Shown: in pieces, positions 20,647-50,671 of the stretch
Layout of the letters: each line of letters opens with the position of its first letter
Position numbering within the stretch: the stretch's first letter is position 1
Assembly (NCBI GenBank): GCA_963802945.1
Contig: CAWDKY010000029.1
Coordinates: forward strand, 32,001-96,000
Direction of reading: 5' to 3'
Source: an uncultured delta proteobacterium
GTDB taxonomy: Bacteria; Desulfobacterota; RBG-13-43-22
DNA length: 64,000 bases
Program-made: the position numbers and the translations under genes
The notes under the pieces: model-generated
The model's input: the letters and a program-made list of their open reading frames with translations, nothing else
Told to the model about the DNA's origin: nothing
The model's database searches: none

Positions 20647-20997
20647 TGGTGGAGGCGGCGGGAGTTGAACCCGCGTCCGAAAATACATCACTTAGGCCTC
20701 TACATACTTATCCTGGCTATTTAAGATTCGCTTTCCAGGGATCCACCAGGCGGGAGACCTGAAAAGCTAGCCCGTATAAAGTTTCACCCTTCCGCCTACA
20801 GGCCATTCGGTCAGGCTATCCTGCTAATCGTCACCCTTATCTTCCCCGCAGGAAAGAAAGACAGAGTGTCGGCCGACTAAGCGGCCAAGGCGTAATCGTA
20901 GTTGTCTGCGATTATTGTTTCCTATCTGTTTTACGAGCCGATAGGACCTCGGTATGCCACCTAAGCTAAATATCCCCGTCGAAGCCGTTTCGCCCCC
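20647..20997 (-). ncRNA. ssrA: tmRNA, tag peptide ADNYDYALAA
   Basis: 5' GGGGGCGAAACGGCTTCGAC, 3' TTCAACTCCCGCCGCCTCCACCA; tag ORF 20909-20877. Confidence 0.96.
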
Positions 20998-39897: not shown

Positions 39898-40088
39898 TCA
39901 CGATCTCCTCTCACCCTGCATTTCCCCTCTGGCCATTCTACATTCTTTCCTTAATCGTTAGTTTAGAGTCACCACTTAAAGTCCAGGATTTTAAACCCGC
40001 CCCAGACCTGTACAAAATTAGTATGCTATCACCGGATTTGTCGGGGTCCATCGCCACCTACGTTAGGGGGGCCACTTCAAAATTTCAA

Positions 40089-40385: not shown

Positions 40386-40489
40386 TGGGGTCAAATCTTT
40401 TATCTTTACATTTTAAAAAAATAGAAAAAGAAATTCAGTCAAGTTTGGAATAAACCGATTGAAATGTAAAGATAAAAGGTTTGACCCCA
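40386..40489. repeat. REP/REPIN-like long palindrome
   Basis: 28-bp arms TGGGGTCAAATCTTTTATCTTTACATTT, one mismatch. Confidence 0.85.
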
Positions 40490-40689: not shown

Positions 40690-40746
40690 AGGGTCAGGTC
40701 TTTTATTGTGGTATTAGTAAAATATCAAGATAAAAGACCTGACCCT
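40690..40746. repeat. REP-like palindrome
   Basis: 17-bp perfect arms AGGGTCAGGTCTTTTAT. Confidence 0.85.
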
Positions 40747-40808: not shown

Positions 40809-41005
40809 AGACATAGGAGGGAAGTAGGGAATTCCCTCTCTACACGAATTCGCCTTTATTTTTAAACATTATTTAGACTTCTACTCAGATTTGTAAAGAT
40901 AAATTTCAGATATTCAGTAAGGTTGTTCTAAGGACCTCCTGCTCTTGTAACATCCTGACCTAAAGTCCAAGATTATAAACCCGACCCCCAGACCTACCTC
41001 CTTTG

Positions 41006-41338
41006 TCACTGGGCGTGTTTGCCGCATAATGCCGTCCATGGGATGGCTTCGAGCCGCTTTATGGGTATCGGTTTTCTGCAAACCTCGCAGAAGCCGTATC
41101 GGCCCGTTTCCATCATCGACAGCGCATGGTCAATAGCCTCGATCTCTTCTCTCTCCTGGTCATCCAGGTGCTCCAGGAAGTCGGCTGAGGACTCCTTCTG
41201 GGCTTTTTCTTCGGGCTCGATATCGGGCTCGGCCAGGATATGCTGCGTTTCTTCAGAGTTTCTGTGCTTTTCGAGAAGTTCGTCGCGTCTTTTGACTAAT
41301 CGCGTACGAAGGCGTCTCATCTGTTCCGATCTTTCCAT
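41006..41338 (-). CDS. TraR/DksA family C4 zinc-finger protein
   Basis: GRYGFCEVC..PIPIKRLEAIPWTALC. Confidence 0.9.
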   Translation of the reverse strand: MERSEQMRRLRTRLVKRRDELLEKHRNSEETQHILAEPDIEPEEKAQKESSADFLEHLDDQEREEIEAIDHALSMMETGRYGFCEVCRKPIPIKRLEAIPWTALCGKHAQ

Positions 41339-41694: not shown

Positions 41695-42039
41695 TTATTT
41701 ACCACAGCATTTTTTATATTTTTTCCCGCTTCCACAAGGACAGGGCTCGTTGCGTCCAACTTTTTTTTCGGCTGTCGTTGGTTTTAATGGACTCAGCAAT
41801 CTTTCTAAATCGGTAATATCCTCCGGTTGATCCGGTTCCAATCCAATGGTATATTTCCAATTGTTTTTTTCAAATATGGTTGCCACTTCTTTCATTTTTT
41901 CTTCTGTTTGTACACGAACAACTGCCGGATTCTTTTCAGTCCCTAATTTTGCCGTTTTTTTAACAGCAAACATTCTTGCCCTTTTTTCTCCATCAAAAGT
42001 AGTTGCTTTCTTGGTACCATCAACAAATATTTTCCCCAT
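41695..42039 (-). CDS. SEC-C motif protein (PBPRA1643-like)
   Basis: [14 protein letters not shown]...EDITDL; [18 protein letters not shown]. Confidence 0.85.
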
Positions 42040-42321: not shown

Positions 42322-42520
42322 TGTCAGGTCTATAATGTTTCATTCCCTTTATCATTAACCAAATCGTTTAGACTTCTGTTTAGATGTGTAAAGTAAAATC
42401 CCAGATAGTCGGTACGATTATCCCAAGGATCGCCTGCTCCTGGAATAGACAGACTTAAAGTCCAAGCTGATAGACCCGCCCCCAGATGTGTACAAAATAA
42501 GTATACTGTCATCGGAATTC
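42322..42520. repeat. Repeat family B, REP-bounded element
   Basis: TGTCAGGTCTAT...ATAGACCCGCCCC ends; related at 27710-27805, 39975-40040, 40855-40995. Confidence 0.7.
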
Positions 42521-42577
42521 GGCGCACATCCACCCTGAGGGCGCCATAAGTCGTAGCGCTCAATGGTGTTATTAGAT
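42521..42577 (-). other. Degenerate attC-like recombination site overlapping the HEPN gene stop
   Basis: ATCTAATAACACCATTGAGCG...CGCCCTCAGGGTGGATGTGCGCC imperfect hairpin. Confidence 0.5.
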
Positions 42578-43342
42578 TTCGTACTTTGTAATGACATTGT
42601 CAACTAGGTCGATAATAAAATCGGTAGTCTTTACCTCGGAGATGCTTATGGAAGAGGGGTGAGCTGAGGAATTTCTAATACCTAGTTTTGTGTCGAGTAT
42701 CTTGCGAACGTCATTGCTTATGATCTTGGCCCCTCTAGCGAGTTCAACCAGTTTGCTCTCCGGCATCTCGGTGAAGTCATCGATCTTGGAAATTCTAGAA
42801 ATTTTGATTCTTTTGTCTTTGTCTTTTGCTAATGCTGAGTTGAATGACGATAATTCATTTTTCAGGATGTATTCGCAAAGGTGATAGACGGCAAGAATCC
42901 AAACCAAAACTATCGCCGCTCTTCTGGCACCAATTTCATAACAATCAATAGCTTCTTGAAGAAACGATTGCTCCTTTTTATCTCTAAGCTTGGAAAGTAA
43001 TGCCCGGAGCAAGTAGCTCGTTTCGATTTTAGCTGGTCCAGTATGGAGAGATTTTTGAATATATAGTTGATAACTTCGTTCAAGTTGGTAGCCATCGCGC
43101 GTTTTAATATATTTTGGTTTATCGCCCCCCTTACCTTTGAAGCTCCGTGAAAGGTATGCAGGGATGTTTGAATACTTGTTAAGTCTACTGAGACTGAAAC
43201 ACGCCTCAACGTCCGACGCTTGGACAGCATCCTTGGATTCGATTACGGTCAGGTAATAAACGAAATAGTCGATCAGACTAGCAGGAGTCTGCGTATCAAG
43301 ATCCGGCACTTGCAATAGAAAATTATCCAGCTTCTCGTTCAC
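42572..43342 (-). CDS. Hypothetical protein: N-terminal wHTH-like domain + C-terminal HEPN domain
   Basis: FLQEAIDCYEIGARRAAIV helix and RNSSAH (Rx4H) motif. Confidence 0.72.
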   Translation of the reverse strand: MNEKLDNFLLQVPDLDTQTPASLIDYFVYYLTVIESKDAVQASDVEACFSLSRLNKYSNIPAYLSRSFKGKGGDKPKYIKTRDGYQLERSYQLYIQKSLHTGPAKIETSYLLRALLSKLRDKKEQSFLQEAIDCYEIGARRAAIVLVWILAVYHLCEYILKNELSSFNSALAKDKDKRIKISRISKIDDFTEMPESKLVELARGAKIISNDVRKILDTKLGIRNSSAHPSSISISEVKTTDFIIDLVDNVITKYEI

Positions 43343-43344
43343 GG

Positions 43345-43908
43345 TTACTCGCTATCCTCTGCCTTGCCAAGATCATGTTCTAAATAATTGATCCCAGCAA
43401 TGGGAACCTTAATGTCTTCAAGCGAGCTTGTATCGATCCACCCTTTGTGATGGGATGTATCGAGCAGGCTTTGGGCCAGCGCCATTGGAGATTTAATTCC
43501 CTTGATGTGGCGATAACATGTGAAGACGTGATCCACTGTAATAGGAGTATGCTCAATAACTTGCTGCAAGTAGTAACAAAACACTAGATTCTTCTCGAAA
43601 TTCGACTTAGCCGAGTATTGCTCATAGAAGTCCTTCAGATTAGATTTCTTACCTTTTCCGGAGAGATCAAGATCCTTAACGATTTTCGGTGCTGTCTTAC
43701 CCGTGTTGGCCTTTCGTTTCTTGGCAGACTTTCCTGCTTGTTTGTCTGGTTGCGTTCTTCCTATCGTCTTAGTTTGAGACCGATGTTTCAGGTGCGTCTG
43801 CTGGATTTGTTCCTTGAAGTCCGTGTAAATGGAGAGAACGAATTCCTCAGTTCCCTCAGCTTCAATTGTTCCCTGGGTCAAGTCGATTCTGATTCTTGTT
43901 TGAGTCAT
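43345..43908 (-). CDS. Hypothetical protein: short beta N-domain, basic linker, C-terminal wHTH-like domain
   Basis: AGGAGAGG RBS; 187 aa; 2-nt gap to the HEPN gene. Confidence 0.7.
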   Translation of the reverse strand: MTQTRIRIDLTQGTIEAEGTEEFVLSIYTDFKEQIQQTHLKHRSQTKTIGRTQPDKQAGKSAKKRKANTGKTAPKIVKDLDLSGKGKKSNLKDFYEQYSAKSNFEKNLVFCYYLQQVIEHTPITVDHVFTCYRHIKGIKSPMALAQSLLDTSHHKGWIDTSSLEDIKVPIAGINYLEHDLGKAEDSE

Positions 43909-43932
43909 TCTTCCTCTCCTTTCAAAATTTAT

Positions 43933-44285
43933 CAAGTTATTCTAAAGTCTTCTGTATATCTCCCCAAGCCAAGGGGGCCATCGGGATTATCATTAATGGA
44001 TATTTATCTTGACTTAATTACCCGAAGACATCCCTCCACACAAATTTTTTATGGCTATAACCGGCACGGGTTTTAACATTAATAGGATCGTAGGTAAAGG
44101 GAATGCTTGGTTGATTGGATGGATCTTTTGGGATATGGGTCTGGGCCATAAATCTCCTTAAGATCTTAAAGAAAGAAATTTGGAAAAATTGGTTAGACTT
44201 GGTCAGTATAACATAACCAGTTAAATTGTCGAGAAATTTCTTATGGAAGAAATACGTTTATTAAGAAGTGTAAAAACTTGAGCAA
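43933..44285 (-). repeat. Repeat family C copy 1 (promoter + 43-aa leader ORF 44149-44018 + core-like site)
   Basis: Collinear with 45881-46265. Confidence 0.85.
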
Positions 44286-44395
44286 ATGGGGGGGAAAGGG
44301 TATTTTTCGACTCATAGTAGCATAGTGGAACCCCAAAGGTTCGGCAAATACCTTCAATGTCCTTTTGCGAGGCCTGGTCTAAATGACCCATTGTT

Positions 44396-45787
44396 TCATG
44401 ACCCCCTTACAGAATTTTGCCTATTGCCCGAGTAACATATAAAGTCTTCATACACCTTGCGATTCAACTGGATATTCCTTCTGTATGAAAGGTTGCCCAC
44501 GAGACTGAGCCACGGCTTGCGGCGTTGCCATATGTTGCTCCACACCCTGCGCAGAATGCGCGGCATGGAGTAGAAACCCCGGTCGCAGGTAATCTTTTCC
44601 TGAATCACGTCGGCAAGAGATAAATGCCTATATCGGGCAACCGGGAAGGTCAGCGTGTAATATTTCCAGTCTTCCGGAAACCTATTAAGGGCGATGCGGT
44701 CCTCCGATTTCATCCGGTCCCACAGGCGCGTGCCCGGCAAGGGCGTCAGAAATAACGTGTTGAGATTGTCTACGCCATACCGACTGGCCACCTCGGCGAT
44801 ACGTTTGCCGATGCCCGGCTCGTCTATGTCCAGACCGATGACAAAGGACCCTACGACCAGTATCTTGTGCCGCTGTATACGCTGCACGGAGGTGCGGAAG
44901 TCCCGGCCCTTCAGTAGGTTGAATTTCTTGCCGATTTCCCGAAGCCCTTCCGGTGAGAGGGACTCAAAGCCGATAAAGACGCCTCGGCACCCGGCCTTCG
45001 CGGCCAATGAAAGGAGTTCTTCATCATCGGCGAAGTTAATGGTGACCTGGGCAACCCATTCCTTTCGCAGGTTCGCTTGTGACATGGCACGGAACAGGTC
45101 CTTGGCGCGGGCGATATGTTCAGGACGTGTGCCGATGAGATTATCGTCCACCAGCAGAACATGTTTCTCGCGGATCAACTGGAATTCCCGGACGATATCC
45201 GGAATGGGTCGCAGCCTGTAGTGGGCACCGTTAAAGGCTGTCACGCTGCAAAAGGTGCAGTTCAGTGGGCAGCCTCGTGTGGTCTGAATAGCTCCGAGGG
45301 CGTATCCCGTATTAAGCAAATCATGGCGGGCTAAGGGGACATCGTCGATCTCGGCGAGCCCTCCGTCATACCGGCGCTTCAGACTCCCACGTTGGGCATC
45401 CTCCAGGACCTCCCGCCAGATGCTCTCAGCTTCCCCTGTGACAACCGAGTCCACACGCTCCATGACCTCCTCTAAGCACATGGTTGCGTGAATACCGCCC
45501 ATGACGACGGGCACACCCAGACTCCGGAAGGAAGCGGCCACTTCATAGGCGCGGGTCGCCTGGGAAGTGAAAGCGGTAATGCCCACCAGGTCCGGCCGCG
45601 GCATGGCTGAATAGTCCGGCACTCCGAGGTTCTCGTCCACAATCGAGATTTCCCACTCCGGCGGGGTCAGTCCCGCGAGAACCATAAGGCCGAGGGGTTT
45701 CCACACCCGGTACCGGTTCCAGCGGCTCTCATTGATTTTGGTGATGGCGACCAGTGGGTTTGAAGGGTTGATCAAATATAGTCGCAT
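44396..45787 (-). CDS. B12-binding domain radical SAM protein
   Basis: VVMGGIHAT, GEAE, RGCPLNCTFCS, LTPLPGT. Confidence 0.92.
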   Translation of the reverse strand: MRLYLINPSNPLVAITKINESRWNRYRVWKPLGLMVLAGLTPPEWEISIVDENLGVPDYSAMPRPDLVGITAFTSQATRAYEVAASFRSLGVPVVMGGIHATMCLEEVMERVDSVVTGEAESIWREVLEDAQRGSLKRRYDGGLAEIDDVPLARHDLLNTGYALGAIQTTRGCPLNCTFCSVTAFNGAHYRLRPIPDIVREFQLIREKHVLLVDDNLIGTRPEHIARAKDLFRAMSQANLRKEWVAQVTINFADDEELLSLAAKAGCRGVFIGFESLSPEGLREIGKKFNLLKGRDFRTSVQRIQRHKILVVGSFVIGLDIDEPGIGKRIAEVASRYGVDNLNTLFLTPLPGTRLWDRMKSEDRIALNRFPEDWKYYTLTFPVARYRHLSLADVIQEKITCDRGFYSMPRILRRVWSNIWQRRKPWLSLVGNLSYRRNIQLNRKVYEDFICYSGNRQNSVRGS

Positions 45788-45880
45788 AGCGCGTATTCGG
45801 TCCTGGTCATGGAGGTCCTTGTCTTCTCCTTTTGCTCACTTCCGTTTTCGTGAATGATTTGTTGTAATTCCTATTCTTTG

Positions 45881-46265
45881 GCTAACAAGTTATTCTGTGG
45901 TTTCTTAATATCTCCCCAACCCAAAGAGGCCTTCAGGGGTATAGTTAATGGCTGTTTATCTTAACTTAATTGCCCGAAGACATCCCCCTACACCTTTAAG
46001 ATTATATAGAAACGTCAGGATTATTTTTGTTTTATCAGAGGGATAATCGGGACGGGTCTTAACAATAAGAGGATTATGGGCAAAGGTAATGAATGATTGA
46101 TTGAATGGATCTTTTGAGACATGGATCTTGGCCATAAATCTCCTCAAGATCTTGAAGAAAGAATTTTGAAGAATCTTAAACTAATGGTCATTATAACATA
46201 ACCAGTTAAATTGTCGAGAAATTTCTTGTGGAAGAAACAGACTTAATAGGGTGTGTGAAAACCTT
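45881..46265 (-). repeat. Repeat family C copy 2 (promoter + leader ORF 46135-45956 + GTTAGCC core)
   Basis: Collinear with 43933-44285; TCGACA-N16-TATAAT with TG extension. Confidence 0.85.
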
Positions 46266-46352
46266 GACAAAGATTGATTACTGTGTAGAATTTCACACAA
46301 GGCATATTTTACAATAGTCTTAAAATGTTATCATTTAAAATGAAAAATGAAA

Positions 46353-46401
46353 TTATAATAAATGTCGGTACTTGACTGTAAATACCGACATTTATTATAA
46401 T
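46353..46401 (+). promoter_or_regulatory. abiE promoter with inverted-repeat operator
   Basis: Perfect 18-bp arms TTATAATAAATGTCGGTA; TTGACT-N18-TATAAT. Confidence 0.8.
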
Positions 46402-46407
46402 ACCCCC

Positions 46408-47016
46408 ATGAAATCAACGAAATCACTGGAAAGCATACTGAATAAGGTAAACATTGGGGCTTTTTTTCACCCGCGCCATCTTGAGCCTTTTGGCATTTCA
46501 TTTCAAGATCTCCAGCGCCTGGTAAAGATGGACAAAATTGAAAAGGTTGGAAAGGGTCTCTACCGCCTGACAGCAATCAAACCGACCGAATTGGAAACCA
46601 TCGCCATGGTTTGTTCCGCTGTCCCTTCGGGAATTATTTGCTTGCTTTCGGCGCTTCTCATCCACGAAATCGGGACACAGAACCCTCATGAAATCTGGCT
46701 GGCGATCGACGTGAAGGCTCGCAAACCAGCCCATCTTCCGGCACGTGTGCGGTTCTTCCGTTTCTCCGGTGTCATGCTCACTTATGGCGTCCAGACTCGA
46801 ACGGTTCAAGGGATTCCAGTACACATCACCTCACCGGCTCGTACGGTGGTGGATTGTTTCCGTTATCGTAATAAAATCGGAATTGATGTAGCTATCGAGG
46901 CTCTTCGCGATGCCGTCCGCTCTCGCAAAGCGACCGTTGATGAGATCGTACGGGCCGCCGAGGCATGCCGTGCCCGGACTATAATGCGGACCTACCTGGA
47001 ATCTTTGACCCCATGA
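46408..47016 (+). CDS. Type IV TA antitoxin, AbiEi family
   Basis: IEKVGKGLYRL, ICLLSAL..HEI, TSPARTVVDCFRYRNKIG. Confidence 0.9.
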   Translation: MKSTKSLESILNKVNIGAFFHPRHLEPFGISFQDLQRLVKMDKIEKVGKGLYRLTAIKPTELETIAMVCSAVPSGIICLLSALLIHEIGTQNPHEIWLAIDVKARKPAHLPARVRFFRFSGVMLTYGVQTRTVQGIPVHITSPARTVVDCFRYRNKIGIDVAIEALRDAVRSRKATVDEIVRAAEACRARTIMRTYLESLTP

Positions 47017-47951
47017 CTGCCCGGGTACCCCGCAACATAGCTGCTTCAGTTCATGCCAGGCTTCTGAACCGTAGTCGAGAGACAGGGGAAGACTTTCAAT
47101 TTCTCCTACACCGATATGTCGCCGAGAGATTTCTGTATCGGTTGGGCGTTTCGATATACCGTGACCATTATGTACTCAAAGGAGCGATGCTTTACGCCCT
47201 ATGGGGTGGATCGATTTACAGACCAACCCGTGACCTTGACTTTACAGGATATGGGAGCAGCCTAACCGAGGATGTACTTTCTGCCTTTCGAAGCATCTGC
47301 GAACTTTCAGTCGAAAATGACGGACTCTCCTTTGATTCTTCCTCCTTCAAAACAGAGCCCATTCGCGATGAAACTGAGTATCAGGGAATTCGTATCCGCT
47401 TTCAGGTAAGGCTTGGCAACGCACGAATCCAAATGCAAGTTGATATCGGGTTTGCAAATGCTATAGAGCCGCCGGCATCTTATGAGTCTTACCCGATCCT
47501 CCTCGATGGGCCGTCCCCACAAATTCGGACCTATCCTCCCGAGGCAGTGGTTGCCGAAAAATTTCATACCATGGTCGTACTCGGCGAGATTAATAGCAGG
47601 TTAAAAGATTTCTATGACCTCCACGCCCTTGCCTCTCAATTTTATTTTGAAGGGGCGAGGGTCGCCCGGGCCATCGAAGTTACCTTTGAGAGGAGACGCA
47701 CAACCATCGAACCCGCCTTACCGGCAGTGCTTACACCTCGTTTTTTTACTGATGTTAGACGTAGAGAACAATGGCGCTCTTATCTTTTTCGCAACAATCT
47801 GCCCGGTGTGCCAGAGGATTTTACCGTTCTTGGGAAAGTTAATATATCGTTTCTCGTCCCTGTTTGGGGCGCTATTGCCAAACGATCAACATTTGATTTG
47901 ATCTGGCCTCCTAGGGGGCCTTGGAAACCAATCAGGAAGAAAGGCCGATAA
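47013..47951 (+). CDS. Type IV TA nucleotidyltransferase toxin, AbiEii family
   Basis: VLKGAML..RPTRDLDF, VAEKF, NSRLKDFYD; ATGA overlap with the antitoxin. Confidence 0.92.
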   Translation: MTARVPRNIAASVHARLLNRSRETGEDFQFLLHRYVAERFLYRLGVSIYRDHYVLKGAMLYALWGGSIYRPTRDLDFTGYGSSLTEDVLSAFRSICELSVENDGLSFDSSSFKTEPIRDETEYQGIRIRFQVRLGNARIQMQVDIGFANAIEPPASYESYPILLDGPSPQIRTYPPEAVVAEKFHTMVVLGEINSRLKDFYDLHALASQFYFEGARVARAIEVTFERRRTTIEPALPAVLTPRFFTDVRRREQWRSYLFRNNLPGVPEDFTVLGKVNISFLVPVWGAIAKRSTFDLIWPPRGPWKPIRKKGR

Positions 47952-50212: not shown

Positions 50213-50671
50213 TTATTTTTTTTCTCGCTCTAGGCGGTCGGCTTCCCGTTTCAGGTCTTTTTTCTTTATGGCTTCTCTTTTGTCATAAAGTTTCTTCCCT
50301 TTGGCCAGGGCCAGCTCAACCTTGGCCTTGCCCTCGAGGAAATACAGCTTAAGAGGAACTACGGTTAAACCTTTTTCCTGAATCTTGCCGATCATTCGCC
50401 TGATTTCTTGTTTATGCAGAAGAAGCTTGCGGGTCCGGGTCGGATCCTGCTCATGTAATGGGGAATTTTCATAGGGGCTGATATGGACCTCATATAAAAA
50501 CATTTCCCCACCCTTGGGTTTGGCATAACTGTCTTTAAGGTTGGCCCTCCCGAGACGCAGGGATTTGACCTCTGATCCGGTCAACACCAGACCGGCTTCA
50601 ATGGTCTCCTGAATATGGTAATCGTGATGGGCCTTGCGATTTTGGCTAATGATTTTTATGTGTTCGGCCAT
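50213..50671 (-). CDS. smpB: SsrA-binding protein
   Basis: NRKAHHDY, GSEVKSLR, RKLLLHK, GKKLYDKRE. Confidence 0.98.
   Translation of the reverse strand: MAEHIKIISQNRKAHHDYHIQETIEAGLVLTGSEVKSLRLGRANLKDSYAKPKGGEMFLYEVHISPYENSPLHEQDPTRTRKLLLHKQEIRRMIGKIQEKGLTVVPLKLYFLEGKAKVELALAKGKKLYDKREAIKKKDLKREADRLEREKK

Follow-up and report, generated by a model that had tools for sequence, protein, structure and literature searches.

A winged-helix protein paired with a winged helix–HEPN protein in a Desulfobacterota genome: a candidate mobile RNase conflict module

HEPN RNases are recurrent effectors of bacterial immunity and of toxin–antitoxin systems. In a 64-kb window of DNA from an uncultured delta proteobacterium (contig CAWDKY010000029.1, positions 32,001 to 96,000; "the window" means this whole analysed stretch, in which all coordinates below are counted), two small adjoining genes raise the question of whether such an effector is here tied to a partner protein, how the two might work together, and how they came to lie where they do. 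A sequence-only reading of the region had proposed an undescribed two-gene anti-phage or toxin–antitoxin cassette, made of a winged-helix protein (P1) and a winged helix–HEPN protein (P2). The genome assembly to which the window belongs comprises 72 contigs and is 100% complete by marker genes. From the folds, the conserved motif, the strict pairing of the genes and their mobility, we lean, with moderate confidence, towards reading the pair as a horizontally mobile HEPN RNase conflict module of the toxin–antitoxin or abortive-infection type.

The gene pair and the folds of its proteins

The two open reading frames (ORFs) lie on the minus strand, at 43345-43935 (P1) and 42572-43342 (P2). We placed the P1 start at the ATG at 43908 because the homologues begin with MTQTK or MGETK in the alignment, and the GTG start of P2 at 43342 aligns with the initiator methionine of 24 homologues. 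Only 2 nt (43343-43344) separate the stop codon of P1 from the start codon of P2, which confirms the tight coupling that had been read from the sequence. The genes and their parts are given here with coordinates and strand; model details are from AlphaFold2 (AF2), with the predicted local distance difference test score (pLDDT).

43345..43908, minus strand: P1 gene, partner protein, 187 aa (ORF call and translation)
43786..43908, minus strand: P1 residues 1-41, β-hairpin and long helix (AF2 strands 4-10 and 13-19, helix 21-41; pLDDT 65-78)
43684..43785, minus strand: P1 residues 42-75, Lys/Arg-rich disordered linker (pLDDT <50 at 42-61 and 63-70)
43348..43683, minus strand: P1 residues 76-187, C-terminal winged-helix module (pLDDT 84-96; NLVFxYYL...HVFTCYR...KGWIDT)
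42572..43342, minus strand: P2 gene, winged helix plus HEPN, predicted effector, 256 aa, GTG start (ORF call and translation)
43028..43303, minus strand: P2 residues 14-105, N-terminal winged helix (AF2 model; LIDYFVYYL...VEACF...KYSN...GYQLER)
42575..42991, minus strand: P2 residues 118-256, HEPN domain (VIA-align fold matches and sequence profiles)
42659..42676, minus strand: codons of P2 R223-N-S-S-A-H228, Rx4H motif, predicted catalytic (coordinates checked against the sequence)

The AF2 model of P2 has a mean pLDDT of 83. Searched with VIA-align, residues 118-256 match 2hsb with a Z score of 9.8 (root-mean-square deviation, rmsd, 2.8; 110 aligned), 2jpu (SsR10) with Z 9.6, the Roquin HEPN domain 4txa with Z 9.5, the AbiA HEPN domain 8oz7 with Z 8.9, and the sacsin HEPN domain and Csm6 6tug with Z 8.3 each, while the HepT toxins follow at Z 7.1-7.9 (5yep, 7.9; 7ae2, 7.1; 8xdj, 7.1); the P2 HEPN domain thus scores at Z 8-10, and values below about 13 are not decisive for helical bundles. 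Because fold scores are ambiguous for such bundles, the HEPN assignment leans also on sequence matches and on the motif. Positions 8-121 (of 432) of the PADLOC profile PD-T7-3 match P2 residues 114-229 at E 4.8e-5, phrog_27609 matches the HEPN domain at E 2e-9, and the PDB entry 9wx2, titled 'Dandelion-hepn', matches it at E 0.0049; the literature searched held nothing that explains this title. A weak, sub-threshold match to DUF4145 appears in 10 of 25 P2 homologues (best E 0.0029), and P2 itself has no local Pfam or NCBIfam match at E<=1 and no zinc-ribbon match.

The residues R223, N224 and H228 of the RNSSAH motif are invariant in all 25 aligned P2 homologues. So are E130, C134, Y135, E136, G138 and R141 in the first HEPN helix, EAIDCYEIGARRAA. 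The HEPN-type C-terminus that had been recognised by eye is therefore borne out by the fold matches, by the PD-T7-3 profile and by the invariant motif residues. The HEPN domain of P2 falls in the DUF4145/PD-T7-3 branch, one that Anantharaman et al. 2013 placed in the HEPN superfamily (PMC3710099). With the whole P1 and P2 models as queries against the PDB, Foldseek returned nothing at E<=0.001; the domains were resolved only by VIA-align.

P1 has no match in Pfam, NCBIfam, PADLOC or PHROGs, and its AF2 model has a mean pLDDT of 78.5. Five residues in the N-terminal hairpin and helix (G13, E16, E18, G19 and Tyr28, written Y28 in the alignment) are invariant in 30 of 30 sequences, and in the model this element, residues 1-41, is a probable dimerisation element. 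The linker that follows is poorly conserved, varying in both sequence and length across the P1 alignment. The winged helix proper spans about residues 100-187 at pLDDT >90 and matches AphA (1yg2, Z 7.9), HrcA (1stz, Z 7.9) and AF1382 (2qvo, Z 7.7). The P1-type winged helix is duplicated in some of the long P1 relatives (P0324, residues 68-167, E 1.3e-6), and others have double zinc ribbons at the N-terminus (P0361, P0366).

The winged helix of P2 matches HrcA 1stz at Z 8.8 (rmsd 2.9, 78 aligned) and AF1382 2qvo at Z 8.5, and at least 15 PDB chains are common to the winged-helix match lists of the two proteins. In hhalign, the whole proteins align at E 0.002 with 13.8% probability. The winged helices on their own align at E 2.2e-4 with 44.8% probability over 27 columns, with the motif FxYYL...V..C[YF], against E 0.43 for a control that compared the P1 winged helix with the HEPN half of P2. 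From the common matches and the hhalign result it follows that the by-eye alignment, which had given both proteins the same winged-helix-like module, reflects a fold common to the two together with a weak motif present in both. That the two winged helices descend from one ancestor is plausible rather than proven. A 1:1 complex prediction of P2 with P1, run with their own alignments and without controls, scored 0.00 against a mark of 0.32, a value that speaks neither for binding nor against it.

Pairing, partner exchange and mobility of the family

A word-index search returned 605 homologues of P2 and 147 of P1, none of the latter with a Pfam family. Among the matches listed for P2 (55-88% identity), 119 of 120 carry the precomputed annotation PF27235, that is AF_1680, an uncharacterised family of Pfam 38.1, and the atlas clusters most like P2 are 98-100% PF27235. 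A profile of P1 reached 2006 representative clusters (50% identity) at E<=1e-3, 1256 of them at E<=1e-10. In 12 of 12 loci from species genomes, one of them cut by a contig end and two only about 24% identical to P1, a P1 homologue lies directly 5' of the P2 homologue, and the check on co-occurrence of the homologues came out in favour of the pair. Their hosts include Gamma-, Beta- and Zetaproteobacteria, Syntrophales, Pirellulales and Latescibacterota. Both ORFs can be read in 11 of the genome loci, and there the genes overlap by as much as 8 nt or stand up to 7 nt apart. P2 is the better conserved, at 52-74% identity, against 24-63% for P1. A pair at about 32% identity sits on an Ochrobactrum plasmid, with Phd/VapC, an integrase and IS66 as neighbours, and another genome of the same genus has a remote version of the two genes, its HEPN domain matching at 98% probability (E 4.8e-14). 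No fused P1-P2 form was found among the proteins of 449-2000 aa in the P2 search, which is weak evidence.

The partner of P1 is not always of the P2 type. Among 80 metagenome loci with a P1 relative, a P2-type HEPN protein follows downstream in 43, and in 6 others the contig breaks off after the N-terminus of such a protein. In a further 15 the product of the downstream gene is a different one, about 245 aa long, with DUF4145 as its C-terminal half (31.8 bits; cut-off 23.1); the N-terminal half of these proteins has a weak colinear similarity to the P2 winged helix (E 0.0095-0.042), and a single DUF4145-partner sequence compared with P2 showed no similarity. The remaining loci have DUF1786 (3), another family (3) or nothing clear (10). 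To judge by this gene order, the partners of P1 are exchangeable and belong to at least two HEPN subfamilies. As a side observation, in three loci (L093, L096, L099) the P1 relative is followed by a protein of 253-258 aa that has no Pfam family, a conserved R-x2-R-G-x-G-H (possibly an Rx6H motif) and a winged-helix-like C-terminal region; it is possibly a third kind of HEPN-like partner, in which the domains come in the opposite order.

Several features mark the pair as accessory and mobile. A close match occurs in 1 of 41 genomes searched (the genome itself and 40 relatives), namely in its own genome, where it is single-copy; the GC content of P1 and P2 is 41-45% against 55-59% in the flanking core genes; and the gene context differs in every homologous locus. 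We found no match to the pair in 50,697 phage records, nor in IMG/VR contigs, that would point to a phage origin. A look for expression gave no RNA run containing the sequence, the four runs listed having at most 0.12 of the sampled words. The sequence-only reading had proposed an integron cassette, with a core-like site just before the ribosome-binding site and a last stop codon overlapping an attC-like hairpin. Since our attC detector is insensitive, the case was built on the positions of the recombination boxes, and the following statistics accordingly describe motif positions, not a full attC model. The core GTTRRRY, mostly GTTAGAT, lies 22-67 nt 5' of the P1 start in 25 of 74 loci; counted over distinct upstream regions, it is present within 70 nt in 20 of 66, where about 6% is expected from the motif density of the same loci. 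Among 48 distinct downstream regions, 21 have an inverse core RYYYAAC that starts -8 to +16 nt from the stop codon of the partner, where 2% is expected; in relatives it often overlaps the stop as ATC-TAA-C. Where both flanks are available (39 loci), the two marks are present together in 13 loci and absent together from 19, and a single one is present in 7, an agreement of 32 in 39. One locus, L012, has a textbook 60-nt attC, and in L017 and L019 attC ends are repeated at successive gene boundaries. An integron integrase scores above the curated cut-off in 4 of 5 other host genomes, apparently more than 100 kb from the pair where contig positions are comparable. By these marks, members of the P1/P2 family frequently travel as integron gene cassettes.

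The window copy itself is flanked by the following features.

43913..43921, minus strand: ribosome-binding site AAGGAGAGG, 4 nt 5' of the P1 ATG (read from the sequence)
43930..44290, no strand assigned: dispersed repeat of about 360 nt directly 5' of P1, with an 82% identical copy at 45880-46270
42571..42577, minus strand: ATCTAAT over the P2 stop codon, inverse-core (R'') remnant, one substitution from the ATCTAAC of L097, L012 and L019
42521..42545, no strand assigned: short hairpin GGCGC-N15-GCGCC 3' of P2, with a 5-bp stem (42521-42525 with 42541-42545)

A GGAG block 5' of P1 is common to most homologous loci. The proposed core-like site in front of the ribosome-binding site failed to appear: the 70 nt upstream of the window P1 contain no GTTRRRY, the nearest look-alikes being TTTAGAA and CTTGATA. 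At the other end, the proposed overlap of the stop codon with an attC-like hairpin survives in part, as the ATCTAAT remnant does cover the stop and a 5-bp stem does follow it, whereas no R' core GTTRRRY lies within 170 nt downstream of P2, and the 241 nt downstream fold no better than shuffles (z -0.57). The cassette idea thus holds for the family, in its upstream and downstream box statistics, and not for the window copy, which has a remnant and no integrase.

That the window copy might still be a live cassette, in an active or an integrase-less array, would accord with the frequent cassette carriage of its family, with ATCTAAT across its stop codon and with the repeats that flank the pair and recur nearby; we nevertheless regard it as scarcely credible. 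The GTTRRRY core is missing on both sides, and a strict attC scan of the 64-kb window on both strands was blank, though that scan is insensitive (5 sites in 379 kb of related loci). The integron integrase profile TIGR02249 had no match above 265 bits in the 72 assembled contigs (best 79.6 bits), so that a gene in an unassembled part is possible, while 4 of 5 other host genomes have one. The flanking repeats, which we had considered as attC sites, were rejected in that role, being too long at 150-360 nt, folding into no hairpin and dispersed over several other contigs. We read the window copy as a former cassette with decayed recombination sites.

Restraint or activation of a predicted RNase

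In HEPN enzymes, two Rx4-6H motifs meet at a dimer interface and cleave RNA (PMC3710099, PMC13017515), and because of this known dimer chemistry we regard P2 as the RNase effector and assign to P1 the part of its cognate regulator. A HEPN dimer of P2 would make a composite RNase site from R223, N224 and H228 of two subunits, and the winged helix of P2 would bind nucleic acid or the partner P1. P1, translated just before P2, would most likely be an antitoxin-like restraint. Dimerised through its β-hairpin and helix, and carrying two winged helices on flexible basic tethers, it would keep P2 inactive and, in the stand-alone operons of relatives, would also bind a palindromic operator and so repress the promoter. 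Were P1 lost, titrated or displaced, as by phage infection, cassette loss or stress, the RNase would be released, and the freed P2 would stop growth by cutting cellular RNA. The spread of the module is largely that of an integron cassette, and the copy in the window is, on this reading, an ex-cassette in a low-GC accessory patch beside AbiE.

An antitoxin-like, autoregulating P1 is favoured by its upstream position, its faster divergence, its DNA-binding fold, its disordered stretch and the palindromes found in relatives. Of 66 distinct regions upstream of P1, 9 contain a palindrome whose arms measure 9 or more, compared with 2.3% of shuffles that kept base composition only, and all nine loci lack a core site. 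Where cassette marks are missing, an AT-rich palindrome is frequently seen 10-55 nt in front of P1, which suggests, as far as sequence can tell, that these relatives are autoregulated stand-alone operons. Non-cassette homologues with an upstream palindrome include L087, L095 and L098.

Several observations weigh against a conflict module under such restraint. Besides the ambiguous HEPN fold scores and the limited shuffles just mentioned, two of the nine long palindromes are GC-rich, terminator-like hairpins, and the window copy has no palindromic operator of its own (best arm 4). The promoter-like sites near the window copy are no better than 9 of 12 matches, and the best one (10 of 12) lies about 300 nt upstream, within the dispersed repeat. 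P1 is large and multi-domain for a classical antitoxin, and the duplicated winged helices and zinc ribbons of its relatives suit a sensor or adaptor as well as an inhibitor. Neighbouring conflict systems count on both sides. In favour of the module, AbiEi/AbiEii, a type IV toxin–antitoxin or abortive-infection pair, is complete at 46372-47951 on the plus strand, 2.4 kb from the pair (PADLOC E 8.6e-66 and 9.5e-105), and on a Pseudomonas contig with TrfA (L018; 1536-9166) the pair has HipB/HipA upstream and ShosA/ShosT (ShosTA) directly downstream, a region that on its gene content forms a small defence and toxin–antitoxin island. A complete PADLOC system within about 6 kb is, all the same, found in only these 2 of 13 loci, and 9 of the 12 other genome loci have no PADLOC match among their neighbours. 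The search for homologues near defence islands thus gave a modest signal, positive for the window and L018 and negative for those nine.

The extra domains of the P1 relatives, which add putative sensing parts (a second winged helix, or the zinc ribbons of P0361 and P0366), together with the trigger-dependent activation of DARNA and RAZR, keep alive a different arrangement, in which P2 would be inert alone and trigger-bound P1 oligomers would arrange its HEPN domains into an active form, the trigger being foreign nucleic acid, or a phage protein on nucleic acid, sensed through both winged helices. DARNA and RAZR are the closest characterised HEPN relatives, single proteins that need assembly on a trigger, and the pairing of P1 with at least two HEPN subfamilies fits a sensor too. 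We consider this activation scheme rather unlikely, as an upstream, faster-evolving partner with a DNA-binding fold, disorder and palindromes at the operon front is the usual layout of an antitoxin; the data themselves are compatible with inhibition as well as with activation by P1. It is much less probable still that the pair is a regulatory one outside any conflict, two winged-helix transcription factors in which the HEPN half of P2 is non-catalytic as in MtlR/YggD. MtlR (3brj, Z 7.7; 6kcr, Z 7.5) and YggD (3c8g, Z 8.3) do match P2 residues 119-256, and each of the two proteins has a DNA-binding fold. Against this, 25 of 25 homologues keep the R-N-x3-H motif and several charged residues unchanged, the HEPN families matched in sequence are of the RNase type (PD-T7-3 and, more weakly, DUF4145), and a patchy, cassette-borne spread over several phyla is not what a housekeeping regulator shows; with its motif invariant and its distribution mobile, a non-catalytic P2 is unlikely.

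Beyond the conflict module that we prefer, we advance as a tentative and possible extension that P1 and P2 are a widespread and so far undescribed two-component immune system, in which P1, a family of at least 2000 sequence clusters without a Pfam entry, would be an exchangeable sensor or regulator of winged-helix–HEPN RNases of the AF_1680 and DUF4145 types. The matched winged helices would then mediate hetero-oligomerisation or a joint recognition of foreign nucleic acid, switching the RNase on or off, and the system would circulate among phyla mainly as an integron cassette.

Comparison with described systems and significance

The failure of the sequence-only reading to match the pair to a named system was reproduced: PADLOC 2.0 gave no match for P1 and, for P2, a match to the HEPN domain only. 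The nearest named system is accordingly met through that domain. DARNA (PD-T7-3) is a single-protein anti-phage HEPN tRNase with an Rx4H motif, switched on by single-stranded DNA (ssDNA) that is presented by the phage's SSB, a protein that binds single-stranded DNA (preprint 10.64898/2026.02.22.705581). Its HEPN domain is detectably homologous to that of P2 (E 4.8e-5), both have Rx4H, and of both one expects action as a dimer and growth arrest of the abortive-infection kind. DARNA is, in contrast, one gene, with an N-terminal HEPN domain followed by a Pds5-like helical domain of about 300 aa, and it forms dodecamers and senses ssDNA; P2 has 256 aa, carries its HEPN domain C-terminally behind a winged helix and always occurs with P1, so that the DARNA architecture is not the one seen here.

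In the case of RAZR (PMC13017515), BxaP (PMC10799925) and Ishtar1 (10.64898/2026.07.06.735840), the divergent DUF4145-type HEPN subfamily is shared with P2, although P2 itself falls below the DUF4145 threshold. These three are single genes with a zinc finger (RAZR), a HEAT-like domain (BxaP) or a beta-rich domain (Ishtar). RAZR becomes active when it assembles on ring proteins of phages (PMC13017515); its N-terminal Cys4 zinc finger has no counterpart in P2, whose N-terminus models as a winged helix.

HepT/MntA (HEPN-MNT) resembles the pair in having two small, translationally coupled genes and a HEPN toxin fold (Z 7.1-7.9), and both are mobile and frequent in integron cassette arrays. It differs in the partner, since P1 and 30 homologues have no nucleotidyltransferase match, and P1 is a hairpin and helix followed by a winged helix; neutralisation of the AMPylation type is therefore not expected. 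AbiE is likewise a two-gene abortive-infection or toxin–antitoxin module with an upstream winged-helix partner that could autoregulate and neutralise, yet the AbiE toxin is a nucleotidyltransferase, and neither P1 nor P2 matches an AbiE profile. The general layout of type II toxin–antitoxin systems is seen in the pair: small co-oriented genes, junctions of -8 to +7 nt and a DNA-binding fold upstream.

The proposal that the system was undescribed needs a qualification. No named system was matched, and the family of P2 is already catalogued, as the uncharacterised AF_1680 of Pfam 38.1; PF27235 covers P2 only and has no function assigned, and P1 has no family. The literature searched held no relevant paper naming PF27235 or AF_1680, and described no two-gene HEPN system with winged helices. 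Two integron-defence preprints, in the parts available, mention other HEPN cassettes and not P1/P2, and their supplements and journal versions could list the pair. What we rate as new is an unannotated partner family, together with cassette mobility, for a HEPN toxin or abortive-infection module.

The characterised HEPN relatives that we found (DARNA, RAZR, BxaP, Ishtar) are all single proteins, and here the RNase domain is tied to a second family. If the two genes are a working toxin–antitoxin or defence module, they would show HEPN enzymes to be regulated in a new way, through a partner with a look-alike winged helix, and would give a function to Pfam AF_1680 and to the P1 family. A two-gene HEPN module would then be added to the defence repertoire that integron cassettes spread.

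Surroundings of the pair in the window

For this genome, the pair marks a small acquired islet with AbiE adjoining. The dispersed repeat 5' of P1 ends right 5' of the ribosome-binding site, and a second repeat of 150 nt starts right after the inverse-core remnant. The copy of the first repeat at 45880-46270 sits upstream of a B12-binding radical-SAM gene (44396-45787, minus strand); the repeat has 13 matches in the genome, and parts of it recur on four other contigs. The promoter scan found its sole good site, at 44205-44232 on the minus strand, inside this repeat; the site is sigma-70-like, and the repeat also contains a conserved short ORF. Its nature may be that of a mobile element serving as promoter or leader, or of a miniature inverted-repeat transposable element (MITE). 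The second repeat family, of about 65-150 nt and 76-87% identity (42367-42519, 40872-40988 and 39974-40039), punctuates the low-GC stretch from a PEMT-like gene to P2, has two more copies on contig C64 and folds into no hairpin.

The same low-GC patch holds a DksA/TraR-type zinc-finger protein (41006-41338, minus strand) and a SEC-C-motif protein (41695-42039, minus strand). The C-terminal motif of the latter matches PADLOC PDC-S12 and E2, matches that are probably due to the motif alone. Strong inverted repeats occupy 40386-40489 and 40690-40746 (31-nt arms, 94%; 26-nt arms, 88%), with the motif GGGTCA..CTTTTATC, in a 600-nt stretch that has no convincing ORF and no Rfam match; a small mobile element and a structured RNA are both conceivable.

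Elsewhere in the family, an NYN nuclease is a neighbour of the pair in L012 and a Gp49/HigB-like gene in L016. In a Methyloglobulus metagenome-assembled genome (L013; 3784-8133), the pair is inserted between rtcB and rtcA, and a second, split rtcB follows. The products of these genes, an RNA ligase and a 3'-phosphate cyclase, act on RNA ends of the kind that HEPN RNases leave; the placement occurs in 1 of 12 loci and is possibly a coincidence. In the window, the accessory patch sits among core genes between the gene for transfer-messenger RNA (tmRNA; 20647-20997, minus strand; Rfam, 215 bits) and smpB (50213-50671, minus strand), which are about 30 kb apart.

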